From Vulcanimicrobiota bacterium (lineage in GTDB: Bacteria > Vulcanimicrobiota > Vulcanimicrobiia > Vulcanimicrobiales > Vulcanimicrobiaceae), in the NCBI GenBank assembly GCA_003135555.1, contig PLCF01000098.1, forward strand, positions 11,121-27,080: 15,960 nucleotides of DNA, given 5' to 3'. The translations under genes and the position numbers were made by a program. The first letter of the stretch is position 1. Each line of letters starts with the position of its first letter. The notes below the pieces were generated by a model. That model worked only from the letters and a program-made list of their open reading frames with translations. It was not told the origin of the DNA and ran no database searches. Positions 1,290 to 12,442 of the stretch are shown here, piece by piece.

Positions 1290-3710
1290 CTACGTCGGAC
1301 CGTTATCCGCGTAGCGAATGACAAACCGCGCTTTTTCAAATGTCTGGACGTTCAACCGTCCCGAGAATGTGTACGCCGTCTCACCGTCTCGACCGCTGCG
1401 TTCTAGCGATGTCGTCTCCGACCAGGTCTCGATATACCGGTGATTCTGATCGAAGAAGGCGAAGCTGAATCGGACGCGGCATGTCGAACCGCCCGCGCTT
1501 ACGGCGCTCCCCACGACTGCGACGACTCTCAGCGAAACAGTGTTGTCGGGAGACCGTTCGGCGATGAGTTGCTCCCACGTTACCTGGCAATTCCTGCCAA
1601 CCGCCCAGTGACCGTCGCTTGACGGCCAAACGGAGAACGCCGCATCCCCCGCTAGTGGCACGACAGGCTTGACCCAAAGTGGGTACCACGAGCTATCCGC
1701 GGCGTTGGACTCTACGGCGTCCACCTTCACAGCCGCATGAGTGATGAATGGTATTGACATCACGGACTGCAGCGCCGCGCGGGCATCGGGGCCGGCATCC
1801 AAGGCCTGGAAGGCTTCGTAAGCGGCAAGTTTCGAATATTCGTCGGCTAAGAGTCGCGAGGCGGGGGACCCGACCGCTATGAGTTGCTTAACAGCGCTTC
1901 GATACGCGCTCGCGGCAGACGAAACTTGCGACAGGTTGGCATAGGCGTCTCCTAAACTGTCCTCAGCCTGCGCGATGCGCAAGGGCGAGCGGAGACCTTG
2001 ATGTTCCGAGAGACGAACGCGGTCCGTCGCGTACTCAAGGGCTGCCGTATAATCGCCGACATTCGACGCCGCCTGCTGAAGATCGGAGTATGCCGCCTCC
2101 AAGCGTGCCGCAGCACCCGACATCCCGAGGGCTTTCAGAACCCTGAAGGCCGTCTCGTAGTCCAGCTTCGCGTCGGCGTCGCGTTGATAGGCGGTATAAA
2201 TTTGGGCACGCTGTTGCAGCAGCCGTGCCGCAGTGCTCGAATCTGTCAAGCCACCATGCCGCAAGTTGGCCAGTGCCGCATTGACGACGTCAAGCGGGCG
2301 AGTCTTGTCCCAGAACTGGCCCCACTTCAGTATCACGCGCACATAGTCGACCGTAGCCGATGCGACGCGTTCATTATCGTCATTCCCCGTGATGGAACGC
2401 CACTGAAGGACGGCGTCGCGAGCGTACTCGAGCGCAATGTAAAATCGATCGGATTCGTAGTACCCGGTCGCCAGGTCTTGGTAGAGCGCGGCCAGGCGCG
2501 TCGATCGCCCGGCAGGATACGCCGTCTTTGCGAAATCGAGAGCGCGAAGATCGTGCGCAAGCTCGCCGTTCCAGTCATGAAGGTCAGAGCTCAGCGACCC
2601 GAGGTTTTCCTCGAGTTGCATCTGGGCGACGGGGTCGTGAACTCGGGCGGCGATAGTGACGCCGTGCTGATAGGCGGCGTTCGCCTCGTTTACGCGTCCG
2701 AGTTCCTGAAGAGAACCGCCATATATCCGGTCGGCCTCCGCGTGCGCTGCTTGCAAGCCGAGCGGATCCGCTCGCTGCCAGATCGCTATTGCGCGACTAG
2801 CATTTTGGAAGAAGGCGTCCGTCCGCCCCTGCAAACGGTAAATGTCCGCGATCTGGTCATAGGACTCGGCCACGGTGCGATCACCAAGCATCGCTTGGCG
2901 CAGCATTGCATTGGACAGCCGTCGTTGCCCGATGTCCTGCGCTCTCGCATAGATTCCCTCGTCCGCATACAAGTCCGAGAGCGATGTCAGCGCAGCATCG
3001 ATCCGGTCAGCATCGTGCGATGCCTCGGCAGCGCTCAGTTGTGCATTAAAATAGGAGGCGGCGCCGGCCAATGTGCCCCAGGTCCGAAGGTATTCTCCCT
3101 CGTCGACGGCGTATGCGCGGGACTTGCTCGTCTTACTTGAGATCTGGTCGACGAGCTTAACACCGTGAATGACTCGCTGGTCTGCCGGGAGATAGAGTGT
3201 AACCGTGCGGATTATGTTGACGACGCCGCGCGCGCAAGTAAATCGTACGTCGTTCCTTTTCGCATCAACCTTGAACGCTGTTCCGCGCACTGAGGCGGTA
3301 AATTGGCGAAAGTTTACCGTGAAGAAGTCGAGGGCGTGCGGGACGACGTCGAACTCGGCGCTGCCGGTCTTGAGAGCCGCCGCAACGCCGGTGCTCGTCG
3401 TCGAGATCAAGGTGAGATTCGAACCTGGGTGTACTGTGATCGTCGATTTATTGTCGGAACGCGAGATCACGACCGCAATGCCGACGGGTGCTTGGATCTG
3501 AGTACCATCCGGTAAAGGATCGCCGACCTTCGGCTTCGGGTAAAGTGGCTTCCCATTGGTGACGAACGTCACGAGCAGTGCCGCGTTGGGCTTTGGACGT
3601 CCGTTCTCGAGCACGCTAGCGAGGATGTGTCGAGGGACGGCAGCAGCGGCGCTCGTCGGCAGGAACGCTAGAATCGCGGCTAGCGGAAGAAGCCTCAACC
3701 ACAAGTTCAC
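1290..3710 (-). CDS. Secreted FecR-like beta domain + tetratricopeptide repeat protein with an unassigned C-terminal domain
   Basis: Probable start is GTG 3710, giving a signal peptide (MNLWLRLLPLAAILAFLPTSAAAA); the track start at 3848 adds a non-protein-like extension. FecR-like pattern (VGD.L..G..I, L..G...F.V, ASVRGTAFKV), then many TPR-like helical pairs (LTSLSDLYADEGIYARA, LGDAYANLSQVSSAASAYRSA). GC is lower than the neighbouring acetamidase gene. Confidence 0.75.
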   Translation of the reverse strand: MNLWLRLLPLAAILAFLPTSAAAAVPRHILASVLENGRPKPNAALLVTFVTNGKPLYPKPKVGDPLPDGTQIQAPVGIAVVISRSDNKSTITVHPGSNLTLISTTSTGVAAALKTGSAEFDVVPHALDFFTVNFRQFTASVRGTAFKVDAKRNDVRFTCARGVVNIIRTVTLYLPADQRVIHGVKLVDQISSKTSKSRAYAVDEGEYLRTWGTLAGAASYFNAQLSAAEASHDADRIDAALTSLSDLYADEGIYARAQDIGQRRLSNAMLRQAMLGDRTVAESYDQIADIYRLQGRTDAFFQNASRAIAIWQRADPLGLQAAHAEADRIYGGSLQELGRVNEANAAYQHGVTIAARVHDPVAQMQLEENLGSLSSDLHDWNGELAHDLRALDFAKTAYPAGRSTRLAALYQDLATGYYESDRFYIALEYARDAVLQWRSITGNDDNERVASATVDYVRVILKWGQFWDKTRPLDVVNAALANLRHGGLTDSSTAARLLQQRAQIYTAYQRDADAKLDYETAFRVLKALGMSGAAARLEAAYSDLQQAASNVGDYTAALEYATDRVRLSEHQGLRSPLRIAQAEDSLGDAYANLSQVSSAASAYRSAVKQLIAVGSPASRLLADEYSKLAAYEAFQALDAGPDARAALQSVMSIPFITHAAVKVDAVESNAADSSWYPLWVKPVVPLAGDAAFSVWPSSDGHWAVGRNCQVTWEQLIAERSPDNTVSLRVVAVVGSAVSAGGSTCRVRFSFAFFDQNHRYIETWSETTSLERSGRDGETAYTFSGRLNVQTFEKARFVIRYADNGPT

Positions 3711-3966
3711 CCGTGCGACTGGCGACGTATAATGCTGAGGATTACCTCCAACATCGAAGCGCGCTGTCGGTGCCGCGCGGGTCCGCGCTACTGTTGGCAG
3801 CCTCGGCCAGGGGTGTCTACGCATCAACGTCCACAGCACGCGTTCCAAATCTTGTCCCGGCGCGAAGTCAGGCGCTCGTTCGGCGGGCGGCGCTTCCTCG
3901 CCTTGTCGATCGGTTCACCTCCGCGCACCGCTCGACATTGGAGGGTGCGGCGCCGCTGGGACATCC

Positions 3967-4027
3967 TTAATCGATCCTGTGCGCTTCCTGGTAGTTCAAG
4001 AAACCCAGCGAGTGCACGGGTTCCGGA
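3967..4027 (-). pseudogene. Repeat B' - remnant of the 3' end of the DUF5069-like gene
   Basis: 53/61 nt identical to 5034-5094. Encodes PEPVHSLGFLNYQEAHRID* versus intact PELVYSLDFLDYQEAHGLD*. Confidence 0.92.
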
Positions 4028-4030
4028 GAA

Positions 4031-4140
4031 GCCGGGCGCGATACGGGCAACGGGCGCGATGGAGCGGTCTCAGACGCTATGCGTTCTGCGTCCGCTTGAT
4101 GTGCATAGGCTCGGCTTCGGTCAGGTGCGGGCGTGGCCAT
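4031..4140 (-). pseudogene. Repeat A' - remnant of the acetamidase 5' end and leader
   Basis: 95/110 identity to 1166-1274. Keeps ATG CAC ATC AAG but has a 1-nt insertion and a TGG>TGA nonsense change. Abuts B' with only 3 nt (gaa) between. Confidence 0.92.
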
Positions 4141-4162
4141 GCCCAGGCCCGAAGGAGGCATC

Positions 4163-4975
4163 GTGAACGAGGCCTACGTGCACGGCTACAATCTTCGCGC
4201 CTATGAACGCCTGCAAGATCAGGCTGCTGCGCTCGTCGAGCTCCTGCACGCCGACACCGCGTACCCGTCAGGGAGCCTGGTGCTCGAGGTGGGGTGCGGC
4301 GTCGGGGCCCAGACCGTCACGCTCGCTGTGCGCAGTCCCCTCGCGCAATTCACGTCGATCGATATCTCCGCCGATTCGCTCGCAAAGGCCGAGCAGGCAA
4401 CGGACGCCGCCGGCATCGCCAACGTGCGCTTCCGGCAGGCGGACATATTCGCCCTACCCTTCGCCCCCGCGTCCTTCGATCACGTTTTCGTCTGCTTCGT
4501 GCTGGAGCACGTGTTGCGGCCGGTTGAGGCGTTGAAGACCCTCCAGAACGTGCTCAAACCGGGCGGGACCATGACGGTCATCGAGGGTGACCACGGATCG
4601 GCGTACTTTCACCCCGACAGCGACGCCGCACGAACGGCAATCCGCTGCCAAGTCGAGCTACAACGGTTGGCGGGAGGCAACGCGTTGATCGGCCGGGAGC
4701 TCTACCCGCGGATGGTCGAGGCGGGCTTCGAGCGCGTTCGCGTGTCTCCGCGCATGGCGTACGTGGATTCGAGTCGGCCCGACCTGGTCGACGCGTTCAC
4801 CAAGAAAACGTTCACCGCGATGATCGAGGGCGTTCGCGACGCGGTGATCGACGCCGGTCTCACCGATCCCGCGACCTTTGACGCGGGCATCCGAGATCTC
4901 TACCGAACTGCTGAGGCGGACGGCGTCTTCTGCTACACCTTCTTCAAGGGAGTGGGCACGAAACCGCAACCCTGA
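4163..4975 (+). CDS. Class I SAM-dependent methyltransferase (UbiE/Methyltransf_31-like)
   Basis: Motif I VLEVGCGVG, acidic IDIS, ADIFALPFAPASFDHV, LKPGG. Shine-Dalgarno GAAGGAGG lies just before GTG 4163, preferred over the track start 4133. Confidence 0.92.
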   Translation: MNEAYVHGYNLRAYERLQDQAAALVELLHADTAYPSGSLVLEVGCGVGAQTVTLAVRSPLAQFTSIDISADSLAKAEQATDAAGIANVRFRQADIFALPFAPASFDHVFVCFVLEHVLRPVEALKTLQNVLKPGGTMTVIEGDHGSAYFHPDSDAARTAIRCQVELQRLAGGNALIGRELYPRMVEAGFERVRVSPRMAYVDSSRPDLVDAFTKKTFTAMIEGVRDAVIDAGLTDPATFDAGIRDLYRTAEADGVFCYTFFKGVGTKPQP

Positions 4976-5033
4976 CGCCTGCGTCTGACGCGCTCTCACG
5001 GTGCCGGCGACCGGACGAACATGCGGCCCCTCT

Positions 5034-5094
5034 TTAGTCGAGCCCGTGCGCTTCCTGGTAGTCCAAGAAATCCAGCGAGTACACGAGTTCGGGA
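5034..5094. repeat. Repeat B (3' end of the DUF5069-like gene)
   Basis: Direct repeat of 3967-4027, 53/61 identical. Confidence 0.92.
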
Positions 5095-5741: not shown

Positions 5742-5900
5742 TCAGCGGCGGCGACGCCGCGAGAGCCACGCCGAGAGACGGACGAGTCCGGAGAGGATCG
5801 CGACGGCGATAGCCAGTCCGATCACGACCAGGAGCGGCTGTTCCCACCACGGCATCCCAGCGCACACGTCGCAGTAGCGGGAGCCGAGTAGCGCCGGCAT
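5742..5900 (-). CDS. 52-aa single-TM small protein with an N-terminal CxxC
   Basis: Hand translation MPALLGSRYCDVCAGMPWWEQPLLVVIGLAIAVAILSGLVRLSAWLSRRRRR*: hydrophobic helix followed by a positive-inside Arg tail. Confidence 0.6.
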   Translation of the reverse strand: MPALLGSRYCDVCAGMPWWEQPLLVVIGLAIAVAILSGLVRLSAWLSRRRRR

Positions 5901-5938
5901 GTCGCAGCGTTTCGCCGGGTGGGCCGGACCAATCCCGT

Positions 5939-6088
5939 TTACTTCGGATCCAAAACTCGCGGACGCTCGTCCAGAAGGCGAACCGCTCTTCGGGTGGACT
6001 CCAGCAGCAAGCTTAGTGCTGCGGTGAGCTGCAAGAGGCGACTCTCGGTTTGCTCCGCTTGTTCGATGTCTCCGACGGCAACGCTCAC
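5939..6088 (-). CDS. 49-aa helical hypothetical protein, possibly leaderless
   Basis: MSVAVGDIEQAEQTESRLLQLTAALSLLLESTRRAVRLLDERPRVLDPK* from GTG 6088; amphipathic helix pattern; an ECF-like promoter lies immediately upstream. Confidence 0.5.
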   Translation of the reverse strand: MSVAVGDIEQAEQTESRLLQLTAALSLLLESTRRAVRLLDERPRVLDPK

Positions 6089-6093
6089 TTGAT

Positions 6094-6118
6094 GACGCAC
6101 CAGGACAACGACGATTCC
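6094..6118 (-). promoter_or_regulatory. Putative ECF sigma-factor promoter
   Basis: Minus strand GGAAT-N16-CGTC, ending 5 nt before GTG 6088; fits the GGAA(C/T)-N16/17-CGT(C/T) ECF consensus. Confidence 0.45.
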
Positions 6119-6126
6119 GACGATGA

Positions 6127-6176
6127 CGGGTCGAGCTGCGAATTCCGGCCGCACCCTGGGCCGCTTCCGCCTGACC
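6127..6176. repeat. Repeat C copy 1 (left flank of the defence-like operon)
   Basis: CGGGTCGAG(C/T)TGCGAATTCCGGCCGCACCCTGGGC is 34/35 identical to 11017-11051, and 46/50 over the extended span. Confidence 0.95.
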
Positions 6177-6197
6177 CTCGCCCGGCGTTGAGGTCGC

Positions 6198-6758
6198 CTA
6201 GCGAGCGGGTTCGTGGTCCTCGAGAATCGGCACCGACTCAACGCGAATTCCGCGAACGCGTGCAGCCTCCACGAAATCGGCCGTGTAGTCCGTTCGGCCG
6301 CTGAGCGGGCCGTCCCACACCGCGATCGCGAGCGTGCTGGCCGAATCGCCGTTGCTCAGCGACACCGCCTTGTCGAGGATCGCCGCATTCGTCGCCGGAT
6401 ACGCGTTGTCGTCGTCCACCGACAGCCCGAGTATGGAGAGTCGCCCCAGTTCTTCGGCCTGCTCGACGGCCGTGTCGAATAGGGCTCCCCACTCCTCCCC
6501 GCGATCGACCACCGACGACCGGCGAAACTCTGCCACCGCGTACGGCAGCACGACCCACGCGTCGATCCCGCACCGCTGCGCGACGCCGAGCGCGACGAGG
6601 TCGGCGCCGCAGGCCGCCGCGCAAACGAGGGCCGAGCAGCCGGCGTCGCGCAAAACCGCCTCAACGCGCTCCTCGACCGCCGCCACGAGGCGTCGCGGGA
6701 AACGCGCTTGGGCGGCATCCGCGGCATCGACGCGGCGCCCGGCGAGGCCGGCGGTCAC
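6198..6758 (-). CDS. Stand-alone SLOG (SMF/DprA-LOG, YspA-like) domain protein
   Basis: Rossmann-like order GLAGRRVD, AACGADL, VVLPY..EF..SV, Y..TN..IL, AIAVWDG, T..FV..AR..G. GTG overlaps the patatin stop (GTGA). Confidence 0.75.
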   Translation of the reverse strand: MTAGLAGRRVDAADAAQARFPRRLVAAVEERVEAVLRDAGCSALVCAAACGADLVALGVAQRCGIDAWVVLPYAVAEFRRSSVVDRGEEWGALFDTAVEQAEELGRLSILGLSVDDDNAYPATNAAILDKAVSLSNGDSASTLAIAVWDGPLSGRTDYTADFVEAARVRGIRVESVPILEDHEPAR

Positions 6759-7936
6759 GCGCCGCCGCGAGTCGGGTCGAACGGCCCCAGATCGGCAATC
6801 TGAATTTGCTTCGCATAGGCCAAGCCGACTTGCTCGAGCTCGGCCACGTGCCGCGGCGAGTCGAGCGGCTGAACGTCCTCCGTCGCGATATCCTTGAGGC
6901 CGAGCTCGTCGAGCCCTTTGCGCGTGAGCTGCGGATTGTACCGGACGTAGGTGAACTTCTTTGGTTGGAACGCGGGCGCGGTGCTGGCCACCTGCCCGTC
7001 TTCGCGCTCGAGAAGATCGCCGATCTCTCCATCGATGCTGTCACCGAACCGGCAGCGCCCGAACACGCGGCAGAGCAGGTCCTGCTCGACGAGCGCCGCG
7101 TCGATGAGCGCCGACGGGATCATGCGCGCATTGTAGAGCAGGGTCATTTGCGACGGCTTCAGATTCGCCGACGCCTGCCCGATCGCGCCCGTCCCGACCG
7201 ACACCAGCAGCAACTGATCCTCGCCGACCGGCCATTCCAGGCGATATTCCGGCAGCGTCGCCATCAAGAACAAGATGAAGGCCGGGTTGTTGTATACGCT
7301 TATCGCGCCGTCGACGAACACGAACTCCTTGGTGCCGACCTGTACCACCGCCGGTGCGAAGTACGTGGGGGCCGCGGTGCTGGCCCGGATCAACTGCCAG
7401 AGCGGGAGCTTCGAGTTGCAGCCGTCCTGATTGGGGTCGTTGTAGCGCGCCTTGGGATTGTTCGACAGCGGCCAGGGGGAGTCGGTGGTGGCGTTTTTCA
7501 TCACCAGAAGGAGTAGCGTTCGCAGGTCGGGATCCCCGAGCTCGCGGTCCTTGCCGACGACGTCACGCAGTTTCGCGGAGAGCAGGCCGTCGACGTTACG
7601 GTAGTACCACTGGCGGAAAAACGGCGCTTTCACGAACATCGCCGTCGCACCCTGAACGAAGAAATCGCGCAGTTGCGCCGTGGACATCCCGAGCGCTATC
7701 CCGGACGCGATGACCGCGCCCGTGCTCGTCCCGCCGACGTAATCGAAGTAGTCGCTCAAGACGAATGACTCGTCGCCGCCGCGGGCCTCGCGGAGGAGCG
7801 CCTCGAGTCGGGCCAAGATCTCGATCGTGATGAGACCGCGGATTCCGCCGCCGTCGAGCGAGAGCATTCGCTTCGGGCCATTCGCCGGAACCTTATGCAG
7901 GAAGCTGTGCGCCGGCGCGCCGTTCGTGTCGCTCAT
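6755..7936 (-). CDS. Patatin-like phospholipase
   Basis: Oxyanion DGGGIRG, nucleophile GTSTG, RASTAAPTYF, catalytic FVDGA..YNNP and LVSVGTG. ATG 7936 overlaps the upstream TGA (ATGA). Confidence 0.93.
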   Translation of the reverse strand: MSDTNGAPAHSFLHKVPANGPKRMLSLDGGGIRGLITIEILARLEALLREARGGDESFVLSDYFDYVGGTSTGAVIASGIALGMSTAQLRDFFVQGATAMFVKAPFFRQWYYRNVDGLLSAKLRDVVGKDRELGDPDLRTLLLLVMKNATTDSPWPLSNNPKARYNDPNQDGCNSKLPLWQLIRASTAAPTYFAPAVVQVGTKEFVFVDGAISVYNNPAFILFLMATLPEYRLEWPVGEDQLLLVSVGTGAIGQASANLKPSQMTLLYNARMIPSALIDAALVEQDLLCRVFGRCRFGDSIDGEIGDLLEREDGQVASTAPAFQPKKFTYVRYNPQLTRKGLDELGLKDIATEDVQPLDSPRHVAELEQVGLAYAKQIQIADLGPFDPTRGGA

Positions 7937-9414
7937 GCGGCGCTCGTGTAGACGATGCTGATCGGGCGCTCGCGTTGCGAGAGCAGCCACTCGGCGTGCT
8001 CGGCGAGCGCTTCACGACCGAGCTCGCGGGCGAGCTCGCGCCGCGCGAGCGGGTCCGGCGGCGGCGATTGGTCAAGCACCCGGTGGGCTTCCTCGAAGAT
8101 CAGAAACATGCGTTGATACCTGTTCGCGTTCTCGGAGAACGCGCGAGTGCGAGTGTAGCTTGTAACGATGGCGATGACCAGGGCCGCGAGCCCTGCGAAC
8201 ACGCCGGCGGCGTAATCTACGGCGGGACGATGCAATTCGACCGACGCGCGCCACCCGCCATACCAGTTGGGAGGCAAAGCGAAGGCAGCCAGCAGTAGCA
8301 GCCCGAAGCCGAGGTTCAACGGCGCGAGGATACCGACGATGCGACCGAAGCGGATCTTCTTGCGGTTTTGAGCGCCTGAAGCGTCGTGGAAATAAAGACG
8401 CTGCTCCTCGACCCATTGACGCAAGGCCGTAATATCCTGCGCATCGTCCGCCCCGACCGACTGCAAGAGTCCCACGGTTCGAAGCGCGCCGCGAATCCAC
8501 AGGAGCTCGCTTTGCTGCATTCGCAGGTAGCTCGAGTCGACGGCGTCGGGCACCCCGGCATGCGTCCAGGCCGATTGCACGCGCAAGCCCTCGCCGAGCG
8601 CGCGATAATCCTGATAGCGGTTCTGATAGTCGGAACGGCGCACGATGACGTACGCCAACAGTGTCAAAGCGACGGCGACGACCTTGAGATACGGGCCCGA
8701 CGGACCGATTTCGCCACCGGCGATCTGCATCGCCGCCGCTACGAACGCGATCGTGTAGAGTGCGCGCTGCCAGAAAAACAGCCGGCGCTGCAGGCCGTTC
8801 GCCGCCGCGTCGACCGCGGCGAAAAAACGCTCCGAGAGCAACGATCCCGACGCCGGTACCGCGATCGCCGCGATGTCCGCATTGAAGCGGTCGAGCCGAT
8901 CCAGCGCCGCGGCAAAATCCGCGCCGCTGCGCGGATCGTCCTTGAAGCGGTGCGGATAGATTCGCCGTATCTCGAGCGGCGCGCCGGCCGCGGCGTCGGT
9001 CGGAATGGCGACGTGATAGGTCGTCGCAACCTCCGGCGGCTCGAGCAGCCGGCGGTGCTCGCCAATGCGCCCCGTCTCGCGCAACGCGATCACGGCCGAC
9101 GTCTCCGCGCCGTCCGCCGGCGCGGCGGGATCCTCAAAGACCACCAGAATGTCACTGAAGTGCGAGACCCTGGCCAGCGAGCGCTCCTGTGCGATCGGGA
9201 TCTGCTGCGACCGCGCCGCTTCGAGCGCGGGATCGTCTCGCGCCGGCGACTCCGTTGAAAGGACCAGCAGCGGCGTGTGCGGGTACTCGGCTCGGAGCTC
9301 GCCGATGATCTCTTCGAATGCGGCATGGACGGCTTCACGGATCGCCGGGCCATGAACCTGCTCGCCCGTGACGCCGACAACCAGCGGCACCGCGCACGCC
9401 GGTGCGGGAGTCAT
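7933..9414 (-). CDS. Degenerate SLOG-like N-terminus + two SLATT/DUF4231-like 2-TM units (4 TM); candidate membrane effector
   Basis: From ATG 9414 (ATGA overlap): PLVVGVTG...YPHTPLLVLS...DILVVF; TM pair ALYTIAFVAAAMQI / LKVVAVALTLLAYVIV then YQDYRALGEGLR; WVEEQRLYF; second TM pair then ANRYQRM...LGREALAEHAEW. Confidence 0.72.
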   Translation of the reverse strand: MTPAPACAVPLVVGVTGEQVHGPAIREAVHAAFEEIIGELRAEYPHTPLLVLSTESPARDDPALEAARSQQIPIAQERSLARVSHFSDILVVFEDPAAPADGAETSAVIALRETGRIGEHRRLLEPPEVATTYHVAIPTDAAAGAPLEIRRIYPHRFKDDPRSGADFAAALDRLDRFNADIAAIAVPASGSLLSERFFAAVDAAANGLQRRLFFWQRALYTIAFVAAAMQIAGGEIGPSGPYLKVVAVALTLLAYVIVRRSDYQNRYQDYRALGEGLRVQSAWTHAGVPDAVDSSYLRMQQSELLWIRGALRTVGLLQSVGADDAQDITALRQWVEEQRLYFHDASGAQNRKKIRFGRIVGILAPLNLGFGLLLLAAFALPPNWYGGWRASVELHRPAVDYAAGVFAGLAALVIAIVTSYTRTRAFSENANRYQRMFLIFEEAHRVLDQSPPPDPLARRELARELGREALAEHAEWLLSQRERPISIVYTSAA

Positions 9415-10799
9415 CCGCCGATCAGACTCGCTAGCCGGTCGTGCATCGCGGCCAATTGCTCGAGATCGATCGCCGGCGGCTTGAGGGCGAGCAATCGCTC
9501 GAGCTGTTTGAGCGTCGCGGGCAGCATCGTCGCATCGGCCTCCGCTAGTCTGGCCATCTGAATCGTCGCCTGCGTCGCCGTCGGCCAGTCGTTTCCCAGC
9601 ACCGCGAGCTCGAACGCCGTCGCGACGGTCCAATAGTCGTTCGCGCCGATGCCGCCCAGTCGTCCAACGGCGAAGACAACCGCCGGGAGCGTCCGTGCCA
9701 GCTCCTCCTGCGACTGCTCGCTACCCTCGATCGCGAGCAGCGTGCACAGATTGACGCCCGGGTAGAAGTCCCGTGGGTCGGCGAGGAAACCTTTGCGATA
9801 CCATTCGATCGCTTCATCTAGGAAACTCTGTGCCAAGAGTTCCTTCTTCTGTGCGCGCGCATCGTCGGCGCGGTTCTTGCTGATGCTGCCCAGCAGCCCC
9901 GCGGTCTCGGAGGACAGCCCCTTCGACCCGACGAGCTCCTGGAGCAGGTCGGTCGCGCGCTGACGGTCGCCCCCGGAGTTGCGGCGGTTCAACGCCGAAG
10001 CATATTGCTGCACGATTCCGTCGTTCTTGCTGCGCAGCGCATCGGGGATCCGCTCGACGAACGCGATGAGCGCGTCGTTCGCGCCGACCGCGCGATAGGC
10101 CAGCAGCACTTCGACGGCGAGCTCGATGTTCACATCGGTGATCGAGCCGACGTCCCGTTCGACCACGCCGATCGCCGCGACCGCGGCGGTGTTGTCGTCC
10201 GGCTGACGCAGTTGCCGAGCGGCGGCCAAACGGTCCCGCACGCTCTTGAGGTCGTCGGCCAGACCGCGGAAGGTCGAGATGTATTCGATCGGCAGCGTGA
10301 TCCCGGGGAAGCCCACGATCATTTGAAAGAGCGGGCTGTCGGCCGGATCGGGGGTCGCGAGCGTCTCCTGGACGCGCGCGGTCAGTGCCGACCGCAGGCC
10401 GGCGGCCGACGCGTCGTCGAGAACGCCATCGGTGAGTTTGTACGGAATCGCCCGAATCATGGCGATATCGAACGGCAGCGCGCCGTCCTTGCCGCTGATG
10501 ATGATCGTCGAACGGGGACGCGCGGCGTGGCGCACGCCTAGCTCGTAAAATACGTTCGCGTTGTCGATCGTCACGTCGACGATGGCGACCTCCGCCAGCA
10601 GCAAGCGCTCGAACATGGACAGGTGGATGATCCCGCCGGTGCGTTCCTGATCGGCGCGGATGAAGTCGACGTCGCACGCCTGGAGCGCCGGCGTGATCGC
10701 CTTCTCGTAGATCGCATCGAAGTCGATCATGCGCGCCCGTGTTTCGTCGGGCTTCAAGCCGAACGGCATGGCGACGAAGACCAACGCGCGGCTTGTCAT
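9411..10799 (-). CDS. Nucleoside 2'-deoxyribosyltransferase-like (DRHyd) domain + MAP3K TRAFs-binding/DUF4071 (TPR-S) domain protein
   Basis: N-terminal VFVAMPFG..DFDAIY..IRADQE..GIIH..MFERLL.AE.AIVDVT.DNANVFYELGVRHA with the putative catalytic Glu in YELG. C-terminal ALNRRN..GDR..A, ETAGLLG...K, AIEWYRKGF..DP.DFYPGVNL.TL, DYW..AT..E. Start is ATG 10799. Confidence 0.88.
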   Translation of the reverse strand: MTSRALVFVAMPFGLKPDETRARMIDFDAIYEKAITPALQACDVDFIRADQERTGGIIHLSMFERLLLAEVAIVDVTIDNANVFYELGVRHAARPRSTIIISGKDGALPFDIAMIRAIPYKLTDGVLDDASAAGLRSALTARVQETLATPDPADSPLFQMIVGFPGITLPIEYISTFRGLADDLKSVRDRLAAARQLRQPDDNTAAVAAIGVVERDVGSITDVNIELAVEVLLAYRAVGANDALIAFVERIPDALRSKNDGIVQQYASALNRRNSGGDRQRATDLLQELVGSKGLSSETAGLLGSISKNRADDARAQKKELLAQSFLDEAIEWYRKGFLADPRDFYPGVNLCTLLAIEGSEQSQEELARTLPAVVFAVGRLGGIGANDYWTVATAFELAVLGNDWPTATQATIQMARLAEADATMLPATLKQLERLLALKPPAIDLEQLAAMHDRLASLIGG

Positions 10800-10911
10800 G
10801 GCGGTAGCGCACCACACGAGATCGCGCGCGTACCGGTCGTGTCGAAAACGGCGATGACATACGGGGCCGGCTTCATCATGGTTGGTTTCACCGCGTTTTC
10901 GAGCGGCCGCC
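10796..10911 (-). pseudogene. Repeat D' - remnant 3' end of a homolog of the 11937-12362 gene
   Basis: 10802-10911 is 91/111 identical to 11964-12074. Reads GGRSKTR(1-nt deletion)KPTMMKPAPYVIAVFDTTGTRAISCGALPP*; its TGA overlaps the ATG of the DRHyd gene. Confidence 0.92.
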
Positions 10912-11016
10912 GAACCCCTTCACCGGGTGTGAGATGCCGGAAGCGTCATCGTGCAGCGCATCGCGCAGCGTTACGGGGGCTCCGTTGCGCTCTGGTCGTC
11001 GCTCGGCGCGGGCTGC

Positions 11017-11066
11017 CGGGTCGAGTTGCGAATTCCGGCCGCACCCTGGGCAGCGTCGGCCTGACC
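11017..11066. repeat. Repeat C copy 2
   Basis: Direct repeat of 6127-6176, 46/50 identical. Confidence 0.95.
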
Positions 11067-11200
11067 GCCCCGGCGGCGAAGGACGGGCAGGCTGACGGCT
11101 AATACATAGAAGGAGCCTGGGGGTTACAATCTACGAACATCGGCCAAGCACTCGAAATCAAGACCGCTCAGACGTTGCTGCCGCAGTTGTAGCGCCGCAC

Positions 11201-11899
11201 GTGATCGCGCCTCCCGCGGACCGGACATGGCGATTCGGGACCAGCATGCGCATCATGCTCGGATTCGCTGCGGTATTCATGTTCGCCGTCGCCGCCGTAC
11301 TCTTCAGCTTGCCGCTCCTCGTTGGCGGAGGCGACCCAGGCGCCAACAGCATCGTCGCGATCACCGGCATCATCATGGTCGGATTCGGTCTGTTCATGAC
11401 GTTCGGGCTGATCGGCGTCGTCCGGACTCAGATCGGTATCAAGGGGCCGAACCTCGAGGCGACGGTGCCGCAACACCACAGCCGGCTGCTCGTGCCGACG
11501 TTCCGCGTGATCGCAGTTCCCCTCGCGCAGATCCGGGCCGTTGAGACGCGCCAGGAGGCGTTCCGGTCCTTCGGCTTGGTCAACCTCCGACAATCGTTGT
11601 CCATCGTGACCAGCAATGGTGAACGGATCGGCCTCTTCAGCAACACCCTTGGTCCGGCGGCACAACTCCCTCTGGATGAGATCGCCGGCGCCATCGCGGC
11701 CGGCGCCGGCGTCGCGGTGACCGACGCCGGTACGGTTTGGACGACGGCGCCCGGGCTCTACGGTGAAGCCTCCTCAGCGTGGCGCGAACAGCCACTTGAC
11801 CAAGCCGGCGCGATCAAGGTCAGGGGAGCGGCGTTGCGGACCGCCCAAATCGCGGGAACGCTGATGCTGCTCGTCCTCGCGCTCCGGGCGTGCAGCTGA
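11201..11899 (+). CDS. Hypothetical membrane protein (2 N-terminal TM, beta-rich PH-like soluble part, C-terminal TM)
   Basis: Hydrophobic IMLGFAAVFMFAVAAVLFSLPLLV and IVAITGIIMVGFGLFMTFGLIGVV; VPLAQIRAVETR resembles bacterial PH domains; C-terminal IAGTLMLLVLAL. Start uncertain (11201 or 11246). Confidence 0.75.
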   Translation: MIAPPADRTWRFGTSMRIMLGFAAVFMFAVAAVLFSLPLLVGGGDPGANSIVAITGIIMVGFGLFMTFGLIGVVRTQIGIKGPNLEATVPQHHSRLLVPTFRVIAVPLAQIRAVETRQEAFRSFGLVNLRQSLSIVTSNGERIGLFSNTLGPAAQLPLDEIAGAIAAGAGVAVTDAGTVWTTAPGLYGEASSAWREQPLDQAGAIKVRGAALRTAQIAGTLMLLVLALRACS

Positions 11900-11936: not shown

Positions 11937-12362
11937 CTAGTGGGCGTGTTCGTGGTGCATCATCGGCAGTGCGCCGCACGACATGGCACGTGTACCGGCG
12001 GTGTTGAACACGGCGATGACGTACGGCCCCGGCTTCATCGTGGTGGGCTTCAACCGCGTCTTCGAGCGGCCGCCCATCACCGGCGTTAGACGGTATTCGG
12101 GCGTCGGGCCCGGATTCGCGCACGTCGCGTGGTAAACGCCGGCGGGGTACTGGTTTTCGGGGATGAACACGCCGTCGAGGACGATCGTCACGTCGACGAC
12201 CGGCGGGTCCAGCGCGACGTGTGCGATCGTCGCGGTCCCCGCGATCTTCGAGCCTGGTTGCGGCTCGAGCTTCACTACGACGTTCGGCGGCGGCGAAGCC
12301 GCGAACGCAATTCCGGCGGCAGCGAGCGCGGCCGCGAAGGCCAGCGCAGAGATACGGACCAC
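11937..12362 (-). CDS. Secreted beta-sandwich protein (Cu/Zn-SOD-like or CHRD-like fold) with His/Met tail
   Basis: SD AAGGAGG 6 nt before GTG 12362; signal peptide MVRISALAFAAALAAAGIAFA; G.ATI, YHATCA, SCGAL Cys pair; ends MMHHEHAH. The fold call is inference. Confidence 0.72.
   Translation of the reverse strand: MVRISALAFAAALAAAGIAFAASPPPNVVVKLEPQPGSKIAGTATIAHVALDPPVVDVTIVLDGVFIPENQYPAGVYHATCANPGPTPEYRLTPVMGGRSKTRLKPTTMKPGPYVIAVFNTAGTRAMSCGALPMMHHEHAH
11964..12074. repeat. Repeat D (within the 3' part of the intact secreted-protein gene)
   Basis: Direct repeat of 10802-10911, 91/111 columns identical. Confidence 0.92.
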
Positions 12363-12373
12363 CGTCAACCTCC

Positions 12374-12442
12374 TTACCCGACGTGAATCGCCGGGAGCGT
12401 GATGACAACCCATACGGCCACGATGATGAGAACCTGGGTCAT
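12374..12442 (-). CDS. 22-aa hydrophobic peptide
   Basis: MTQVLIIVAVWVVITLPAIHVG*; AAGAAGGAG SD upstream; its TAA stop is part of the next gene's TAAGGAGG SD. Confidence 0.55.
   Translation of the reverse strand: MTQVLIIVAVWVVITLPAIHVG

Follow-up and report, generated by a model that had tools for sequence, protein, structure and literature searches.

Signalling of the Thoeris type is now considered common. Thoeris systems are defined by a TIR protein, and the locus described here raises the question of how effectors of the Thoeris type would be served in an operon that includes no TIR gene. The locus lies in a stretch of 15,960 nt (the window, meaning the whole of the DNA analysed) from an uncultured soil bacterium of the Vulcanimicrobiota (GenBank assembly GCA_003135555.1, contig PLCF01000098.1, positions 11,121 to 27,080) and consists of four minus-strand genes, here called A, B, C and D, that span positions 10799–6198 (~4.6 kb). 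In this operon, which is conserved elsewhere, a putative hydrolase (A), a putative pore (B) and a predicted phospholipase (C) are stacked with a separate candidate sensor (D). From the gene structure, folds, motifs and co-occurrence described below, we infer the nature of a ligand, its maker, contacts of D with C and with B, and a possible defence function. The reading that we favour, to which we give an even chance of being correct, is that of a Thoeris-related cassette made up of three effectors and a sensor for an NAD-derived nucleotide signal, without a TIR of its own. If the operon works, either its effectors would answer a signal that is produced at another place in the genome, a form of modular immunity in trans, or a DRHyd domain would replace the TIR.

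The source assembly comprises 3.57 Mb in 98 contigs (GC 67.9 %, completeness 84 %), and the closest named relatives of the proteins encoded in the window come from metagenome-assembled genomes of the Eremiobacterota/Vulcanimicrobiota.

The four genes and their products

As described in the initial annotation, the four genes lie on one strand, are joined by 4-nt overlaps and are bracketed by repeats, which are the two copies of a 53-nt direct repeat. The open reading frames (ORFs) overlap by ATGA at the A/B (9414–9411) and B/C (7936–7933) junctions and by GTGA at the C/D junction (6758–6755), and the start codons chosen for all four are consistent with the N-termini of homologues in alignments. 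Of the domains proposed at that stage, the DRHyd-TPR and patatin assignments and the SLOG assignment for D were upheld, the SLATT assignment for B is probable, with matches just under the model cut-offs, and the N-terminus of B proved to be homologous to SLOG domains but to have lost their conserved motifs.

Gene A (10799–9411, minus strand, ATG start) encodes a ThsI-like protein of 462 aa with a DRHyd/nucleoside deoxyribosyltransferase (NDT)-like head and an ASK1-type TPR-S domain. The latter, a TPR-S/MAP3K TRAFs-binding helical repeat domain, occupies residues ~190–462 (9414–10232, minus strand) and matches Pfam MAP3K_TRAF_bd at 1e-40 and TPR-S at 4.6e-22. At 2e-15, the TPR-S region of A aligns with the animal kinase ASK1 (structures 8qgy and 5ulm), whose N-terminal part combines a thioredoxin-binding domain with TPRs; this bears out the suggested relationship to the animal ASK/MAP3K kinases. 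The head of A also aligns with that of human ASK1/MAP3K5, weakly and in register (FYELG against FYHLG), but in ASK1 a His replaces the Glu and PH and kinase domains follow, whereas A is a stand-alone bacterial protein. A is hence a bacterial counterpart of the human ASK1 regulatory head in which the catalytic residue is intact.

The head itself (residues 1–150; 10350–10799, minus strand) is Rossmann-like, of the nucleotide N-glycosidase type, and the most conserved part of A. It includes the motifs MPFG.K, RAD.E..GG, D75, NxNVFYELG (Glu86), RH and PFD, and in 43 sequences M11, P12, F13, G14, K16, R48, D50, E52, G56, D75, N80, N82, Y85, E86, G88, R90, H91 and PFD109–111 are invariant. The YELG glutamate that had been reported as intact is therefore one of the invariant residues. 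A structural model of the head (predicted local distance difference test, pLDDT, 81) is closest to DNPH1 (Z 11.9, root-mean-square deviation, rmsd, 2.4 over 124 aligned residues), followed by TIR domains (Z 11–11.7), the CMP N-glycosidase MilB (Z 11.0) and NDTs (Z 10). In the VIA and Foldseek lists TIR and DRHyd folds are not separated (Z within 1), so that the motif alignment is the one ground on which DRHyd is preferred over TIR. When the head profile was compared with PDB sequences the best match was again DNPH1, with a weak E value of 0.5, FYELG being aligned on GYELG and Glu86 on the DNPH1 nucleophile motif. Residues 49–126 also match a PADLOC CBASS TIR effector model weakly (4.3e-7), and no NCBIfam model, nor any ThsI model in PADLOC, matched A. 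On this modelling, the head can be assigned, as initially proposed, to the TIR/DRHyd class and has a Glu of the hydrolase type.

With at least 1,327 matches, the A family is much bigger than the B family (216 homologues), and its catalytic residues are the same in TIR-linked and TIR-less members. A second, lone A that is 38 % identical to the first is found in the same genome on contig C54 (L196:7958–9481), beside a gene for a 2-oxoglutarate-Fe(II) oxygenase. Elsewhere, TPR-S is fused to a patatin, an α/β-hydrolase or a D-like SLOG (L189:1342–3903, L135:6628–7992, P0420, P0468, P0502), and thus is a module common to several output or sensor heads.

Gene B (9414–7933, minus strand, ATG start) encodes 493 aa that combine a decayed SLOG domain with a four-helix SLATT-type membrane region. 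The SLATT-like region (residues 197–420; 8155–8826, minus strand) includes two hydrophobic helix pairs, at ~213–258 and 362–417, with hydropathy peaks at 240–258, 362–380 and 399–417. Its matches fall below or close to the respective cut-offs: 2.3e-5 and 25.1 bits against a cut-off of 26.3 for Pfam SLATT_3 (residues 197–285), a sub-threshold 1e-3 for Pfam DUF4231, and 27.2 bits against a cut-off of 45 for NCBIfam SLATT_3, with SLATT_1 likewise below its cut-off. Several homologues of B match PF18184, PF18181, PF14015, PF10686 or PF02481. A comparison of B with the Agrobacterium DUF4231 protein that is the partner of A on a plasmid was not significant (BLASTP E 0.07).

In alignments, distant members of the B family have a canonical SLOG head with the motifs GVTGHRD, AAGAD and FWDG..GGTAD. 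The corresponding part of B in the window (residues 1–190; 8845–9414, minus strand) is SLOG-derived with the family motifs lost, GEQV standing for GHRD, SPARDD for AAGAD, FEDP for FWDG and AETSA for GGTAD, and it scores 3 of 9 SLOG motif positions. A signal-reading role for this domain in the operon is not supported, given that the GHRD, GAD and WDG..GGT motifs are lost.

Gene D (6758–6198, minus strand, GTG start) encodes a free-standing YpsA-like SLOG of 186 aa. Searches of Pfam, PADLOC and NCBIfam found no family match for D, and a model with a pLDDT of 92 is most similar to YpsA (2nx2; Z 17.4, rmsd 2.5, 154 aligned), then to DprA (Z 13.6), ShosA (12.7), Moco-carrier/LOG-like proteins (~10) and the SLOG domain of ThsA (7.3–7.6). 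The motifs AGRR, AACGAD and WDG..G..D.T are intact and the columns GRR.D, ACGAD and W.G..G..D.T are invariant. On its modelled fold, D is a SLOG domain. The family of D-like SLOGs is large, with 1,502 cluster representatives when matches down to an E of 1e-3 are counted, most of them ~180 aa long. Among 11 longer ones that were scanned, the SLOG is fused to a patatin (one), a SLATT (one), TPR-S or TPR (four) or an extracytoplasmic function (ECF) sigma factor (one), and four gave no match. That D-like SLOGs are joined to lipase, pore and sigma factor partners alike fits a role in sensing a ligand. The sigma factor fusion, P0504, is an ECF-type protein (regions 2 and 4) with a D-like SLOG at the C-terminus, which suggests control of transcription by a nucleotide signal.

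The D profile also detects the N-termini of relatives of B, at 1e-10 to 1e-34, and D is hence a paralogue of the SLOG domain of B. Nine SLOG motif positions were scored in 86 B proteins. At all 11 loci that include D, either free or fused to C, the motifs of B are decayed (scores 0–7, mean 2.8), and the mean score for the 75 B proteins without D is 8.3. Without D, the low scores of L039, L041, L020 and L070 belong to rows with truncations or gaps, and at L046, where A and a TIR gene are present and D is absent, B scores 6. Two further loci, L061 and L027, each include one decayed and one intact B, the same complementarity as that of B plus D. Because every D-bearing locus has a decayed B SLOG, sensing appears, on these motif scores, to have shifted from B to D. 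The decayed SLOG of B together with an intact D makes a testable case of a sensor that was split off and shared, and predicts complexes of D with C and of D with B. Complex prediction for B(1–195) with D returned a score of 0.00, which is no verdict and counts as evidence neither way. D is present in 8 of 24 genomes of the same genus, in none of five of the next genus and in one of 11 further genomes (G036). In two of the eight, the homologue is split over two frames and is probably broken (G021:C1:307370-307874 and G003:C11:457109-457646). D was also considered as a substitute for the TIR; this was dropped, as D is found with a TIR gene (L011, L012, L015, L019 and L126) and not only without one.

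Gene C (7936–6755, minus strand, ATG start) encodes a patatin-like phospholipase of 393 aa in which the catalytic dyad is intact, with the motifs DGGGIRG (oxyanion), GTSTG (Ser) and DGA (Asp). It matches Pfam Patatin at 2.9e-21 and the PADLOC phospholipase of CBASS (cyclic-oligonucleotide-based antiphage signalling system) at 6.7e-36, and scores 101.8 bits with the NCBIfam model CBASS_lipase (NF041079), for which the equivalog cut-off is 200. In L003, L004 and L006, C and D form a single ORF that is fused exactly at the position of the GTGA overlap in the window.

A further protein, c2, accompanies C at other loci. It is rich in Cys, Pro and Trp, is ~340–480 aa long (e.g. L049:5328-6776, L006:5398-6552 and L023:10837-12300) and is encoded in 28 of 35 loci with C and in 1 of 45 without. 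Searches of Pfam, NCBIfam, PADLOC and the ESM Atlas found nothing for c2. The C gene in the window is without an adjacent c2, and a c2 homologue lies in metabolic surroundings on contig C50.

Recurrence of the operon and the location of TIR genes

Recurrence was assessed in two sets, one of 80 genome loci collected with a B profile, in which co-members were identified with iterated profiles (B-centred), and one of 80 metagenome loci centred on A. The genes do co-occur elsewhere: the full set of A, B, C and D was found in eight of the B-centred loci (L003–L007, L012, L015 and L019) and in one A-centred locus (L126), in three gene orders (ABCD, BCDA and BA..DC), and nine of the 80 A-centred loci also include B, C or D. 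The adjacency of A and then a SLATT gene recurs in the window, L003, L004, L006, L115, L133 and plasmids of Agrobacterium and Rhizobium. The neighbours of B include TIR-STAND-TPR genes (14 loci), a TIR gene followed by nSTAND1-WD40 (11 loci), CHASE2-TIR, and the patatin C (~35 loci, with c2). Those of A include small ThsB_TIR-type genes (nine loci), TIR-WD40 (eight), an LSDAT-type SLOG (seven), other TIRs (six), TPR-S-patatin fusions (five) and α/β-hydrolase-TPR-S fusions (three).

The absence of a TIR, a cGAS/DncV-like nucleotidyltransferase (CD-NTase) and a sirtuin in cis, as initially claimed, was borne out, in that none was found by Pfam and PADLOC searches with the four proteins or by Pfam with the eight flanking ORFs. 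The window also has no match to a TIR profile that was built from the TIR neighbours of the B-centred loci and may miss divergent TIRs, and a PF08937 search found none. A PF13676 search of the genome revealed six TIR genes, all of them on contigs other than the 27-kb contig (C52) that includes the window.

Beside homologues of the four genes, TIR genes are common. With the TIR profile, a TIR gene was detected in 38 of the 80 B-centred loci, as TIR-STAND-TPR, TIR plus nSTAND1-WD40 or CHASE2-TIR, and within 4 kb of A in 8 of the 20 A-centred loci with flanks of 4 kb or more on each side. A and a TIR gene are found together in L012, L015, L019, L126, L115, L024, L041 and L046, which is as often as A is found without one, and because the two coexist in related loci A does not behave as a replacement for the TIR. 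Small TIR genes directly adjoin homologues of A on Pseudomonas pA7J1 and E. coli pKMi029_2, with a second TIR gene and a DUF4231 gene next to them in the latter, and an Acinetobacter baumannii plasmid has a TIR-A-TIR arrangement. On plasmids of Rhizobium (NZ_CP104156, L209) and Agrobacterium (NZ_CP045855, L199), the A homologue is followed by a DUF4231/SLATT gene, and nearby are two or three TIR genes and genes for QueC, an HhH-GPD glycosylase and a carbohydrate kinase. These two loci resemble Thoeris operons with associated Cap9/10/11 genes that a recent preprint mentions (bioRxiv 10.64898/2025.12.03.692087).

One of the six TIR genes in this genome lies beside a second B gene. On contig C11 (L195:1984-8187), the order is B2, CHASE2-TIR, FecR-TPR; B2 is 33 % identical to B of the window and has a head of the type found in L015, and the FecR-TPR is 69 % identical to that of L012. 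The same trio of B, CHASE2-TIR and FecR-TPR sits between A and D/C in L012, L015 and L019. Set against these joined loci, the trio on C11 and the operon in the window indicate that this genome has the same parts split over two loci. Together, these arrangements support, short of proof, a TIR acting in trans.

The window also includes a FecR-TPR gene (1290–3848, minus strand; 852 aa), 2.3 kb from D, with a GC content at third codon positions (GC3) of 0.68 that is below that of its neighbours. It is related to the FecR-TPR genes of the C11 type in the FecR part only (35 % identity, E 1e-28).

Relationship to Thoeris and competing explanations

Several descriptions in the preprint (bioRxiv 10.64898/2025.12.03.692087) bear on the operon. 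Type VII Thoeris consists of a TIR and the SLATT effector ThsH, and type VIII, which is abundant in Pseudomonadota, of a ThsB TIR and ThsI, a 'CMP hydrolase' with a TPR 'predicted by Aravind and colleagues'; both types answer canonical cyclic ADP-ribose (cADPR), ThsI is activated by it, and added cADPR halts the growth of carriers. Rare operons with ThsH and ThsI together are also described, and type III, according to the introduction, combines several TIRs with a SLOG effector. The combination is accordingly less new than was initially supposed, TIR plus SLATT, TIR plus 'CMP hydrolase-TPR' and operons with both effectors being already included there. In the literature searched, which covered neither the key comparative-genomics papers nor the preprint's tables of 29 putative types, we found no account of the four-gene set, of the fusion and split of C and D or of the complementarity of B and D.

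A has both of the parts described for ThsI, the N-glycosidase-type head and the TPR-S, and its homologues on plasmids of Pseudomonadota directly adjoin small TIR genes as in type VIII. However, the window operon and its contig are without a TIR gene, and A is coupled to three more genes. B has a putative SLATT/DUF4231-type membrane region, which recalls type VII, and lies beside a ThsI-like gene, which recalls the rare operons with both effectors, but differs in its N-terminal SLOG (decayed here), its two pairs of transmembrane helices and a SLATT score just below the cut-off. Of what makes up a Thoeris system, an effector with a ligand-sensing module is present (the SLOG fold of D and the TPR-S of A), and a ThsB TIR is missing from the operon; of what makes up ThsI, A has a nucleotide-hydrolase domain (to which TIR folds score equally) and a TPR, and in the window an adjacent TIR gene is missing. 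Judged from these comparisons, the operon would be a relative of types VII and VIII, in a variant form; it is not a member because it has no TIR gene in cis.

ThsA of type I Thoeris is a SIR2-SLOG protein that binds 3'cADPR, and the operon shares with it a SLOG as the presumed ligand sensor linked to an effector, as reflected in the Z score of D with the ThsA SLOG. Unlike it, D is nearest to YpsA and DprA and is free or fused to a patatin rather than to SIR2, and there is no ThsB. CapV of CBASS is a patatin phospholipase activated by cyclic GMP-AMP. C resembles it in having a patatin Ser-Asp dyad, and its best PADLOC and NCBIfam matches are CBASS lipases, but C falls under the equivalog cut-off, no CD-NTase is present and the sensor in relatives is a fused SLOG. 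The view that the locus is neither CBASS nor canonical Thoeris thus agrees with the lack of a CD-NTase, the 101.8 of 200 bits for C and the lack of a TIR in cis; PADLOC does not match the locus in full and has no model for B or D. Networks of SLOG, SLATT, TPR-S and DRHyd domains were reportedly predicted, as conflict systems that use nucleotide signals, by Burroughs et al. (NAR, 2015) and by Burroughs and Aravind (J Bacteriol, 2020).

In a cassette of the favoured kind, a cADPR-like signal would lead to membrane damage through B and C and to nucleotide depletion through A, and the infected cell would be stopped. The N-glycosidase-type head of A would attack the nucleotide or NAD pool under the control of TPR-S, B would attack the membrane as a four-helix effector of the SLATT type, its own SLOG sensor having decayed, and C, judged by its motifs, would be an active patatin phospholipase. 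D would be the intact SLOG ligand sensor, probably serving C and replacing the lost sensor of B. The signal would most likely come from a TIR encoded elsewhere, for which the CHASE2-TIR beside B2 on contig C11 is the best candidate. A is more likely an effector than a signal maker because it matches the description of ThsI, its homologues adjoin TIR genes, and SLATT proteins, such as its neighbour B would be, are the effectors of type VII.

Several observations weigh against this reading. No TIR gene was found on the 27-kb contig by the PF13676 search, and the TIR profile likewise detected none in the ~8 kb around the genes of L003, L004 and L006, or in L116 and the shorter L005 and L007. With the window and these loci alike, the TIR-less form looks stable, which dependence on a distant TIR explains poorly. 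At 12 of the 20 well-flanked A loci no TIR gene was found within 4 kb, by a profile that may miss divergent TIRs. The 11 D-bearing loci belong to related lineages, perhaps 4–5 clades, so that 11 of 11 does not represent 11 independent events. No defence island can be recognised in the window, where the neighbours are genes for a formamidase, a methyltransferase, DUF5069, a short-chain dehydrogenase/reductase and an HD-GYP protein, and A is likened to ThsI by a published description and not by the sequences of tested ThsI. We also know of no experiment on any SLOG-SLATT, patatin-SLOG or Eremiobacterota system.

The stability of the TIR-less form is what keeps alive a self-contained system, close to that first proposed, in which the TPR-S of A senses an invader, its DRHyd head, in place of a TIR, makes a nucleotide-derived signal, D detects this signal and the cell is killed by B and C. 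Operons of the ABCD type without a TIR recur (the window, L003–L007 and L116), conservation of the head of A is strong and includes an invariant Glu86 that aligns with the nucleophile of DNPH1, the head has a Z of 11–12 to both DRHyd and TIR, which are sister folds, and A is the first gene and translationally coupled to B. A review (PMC9503650) also assigns the ADP-ribosyl cyclases to the DRHyd superfamily and anticipates that derivatives of ADP-ribose are the products of some DRHyd domains. We nevertheless consider such a system unlikely. If A is ThsI, the preprint makes its family an effector switched on by the product of a TIR, and A adjoins TIR genes on plasmids, shares loci with them elsewhere and has the same catalytic residues whether or not a TIR is linked. 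On the same grounds, the role of invader sensor and signal maker first assigned to the DRHyd-TPR protein is not supported, and that of a ThsI-type effector fits better. A two-tier cascade, in which A is switched on via TPR-S, by cADPR from a TIR or by an invader, and releases a second molecule that D reads to fire C and B, would account for the tight coupling of A upstream of B, C and D, the recurrent order of A then SLATT, the presence of two different ligand-type modules (TPR-S and SLOG) and the fusions of D-like SLOG to TPR-S in P0420, P0468 and P0502. It is improbable, given that types VII and VIII answer the same cADPR without a converter and that in most loci a B with an intact SLOG is found beside a TIR gene and without A. 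That A is, in one way or the other, a gated signal maker or converter feeding D and so firing the patatin and the SLATT protein, in a TIR-independent or two-tier branch of the Thoeris type, is also doubtful; if true, it would offer a working model, in bacteria, for the DRHyd-TPR head that is enzyme-dead in the animal ASK kinases.

Two further explanations set aside a working anti-phage system. The operon may belong to a physiological or envelope-stress circuit for cell fate, with NAD-derived signalling and outward sensors (CHASE2-TIR and FecR-TPR), as the conservation of these two partners in L012, L015, L019 and contig C11, the FecR-TPR gene near D and the metabolic neighbourhood would allow. 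This is decidedly improbable in view of the patchy distribution of D in its own genus, plasmid-borne homologues of A that adjoin TIR and toxin-antitoxin genes, effectors of lethal types (patatin and SLATT) and published relatives that are anti-phage. Very improbable is an orphaned remnant, the TIR having been lost on recombination into a slot and the cassette being non-functional. A TIR in cis is indeed missing, B has a decayed SLOG, the cassette directly adjoins the remnant of a pseudogene and has no upstream non-coding DNA of its own, and no promoter-like site was found in 5800–11300. However, all four frames are open, A, C and D retain their catalytic and ligand motifs, the GC3 equals that of the neighbours and several diverged genomes, at 43–60 % identity, share the layout without a TIR.

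Flanking repeats and cargo genes

The 53-nt repeat lies at 6124–6176 (left copy, which begins 21 nt past the stop codon of D) and 11014–11066 (right copy). The copies are in direct orientation and 91 % identical (blastn E 4.5e-12); both are in the window, and there is no other in the 3.57-Mb assembly. Neither folds better than shuffled sequence (z 0.20 and 1.55), and the repeat is thus not a structured element. Immediately upstream of A, a frameshifted remnant (10802–10918, minus strand) represents the 3'-end of a paralogue of a gene for 158 aa (11937–12413), to which it is 82 % identical over 111 nt. The homology stops at the ATG of A, and the reading frame of the remnant closes with a TGA that overlaps this ATG. 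As the homology extends to the start of A and the left repeat is 21 nt from the stop of D, the cassette carries almost no non-coding DNA of its own.

In a scan of 5800–11300, no promoter-like site was detected (0.6 expected), and four terminator-like sites were found where 3.7 were expected, which makes the scan uninformative. The GC3 of the four genes (0.80–0.855) is similar to that of the neighbours, and hence composition does not point to a recent transfer. A search for the two flanks in 40 relatives revealed no syntenic site, filled or empty, because the flanking genes are scattered there. A viral contig collection yielded two weak loci of the B type and no D, and the system is thus not phage-borne in that collection.

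The order on the minus strand is the 158-aa gene, cargo 1, the right repeat, the 3' remnant of the 158-aa gene, cargo 2 (A, B, C and D) and the left repeat, where cargo 1 is a gene for a membrane protein of 232 aa (11201–11899, plus strand). Each of the two different cargos is bounded by this one pair of flanks, which looks like a tandem joining of two diverged alleles of a variable slot. A second junction fragment of this kind (3964–4143, with 1161–1277 and 5031–5094) is made up of a copy of the 5'-end of the formamidase gene and a copy of the 3'-end of the DUF5069 gene (86 % each), and divides a methyltransferase cargo (4133–4975) from the FecR-TPR cargo (1290–3848). Both of these cargos lie between the intact DUF5069 and formamidase genes.

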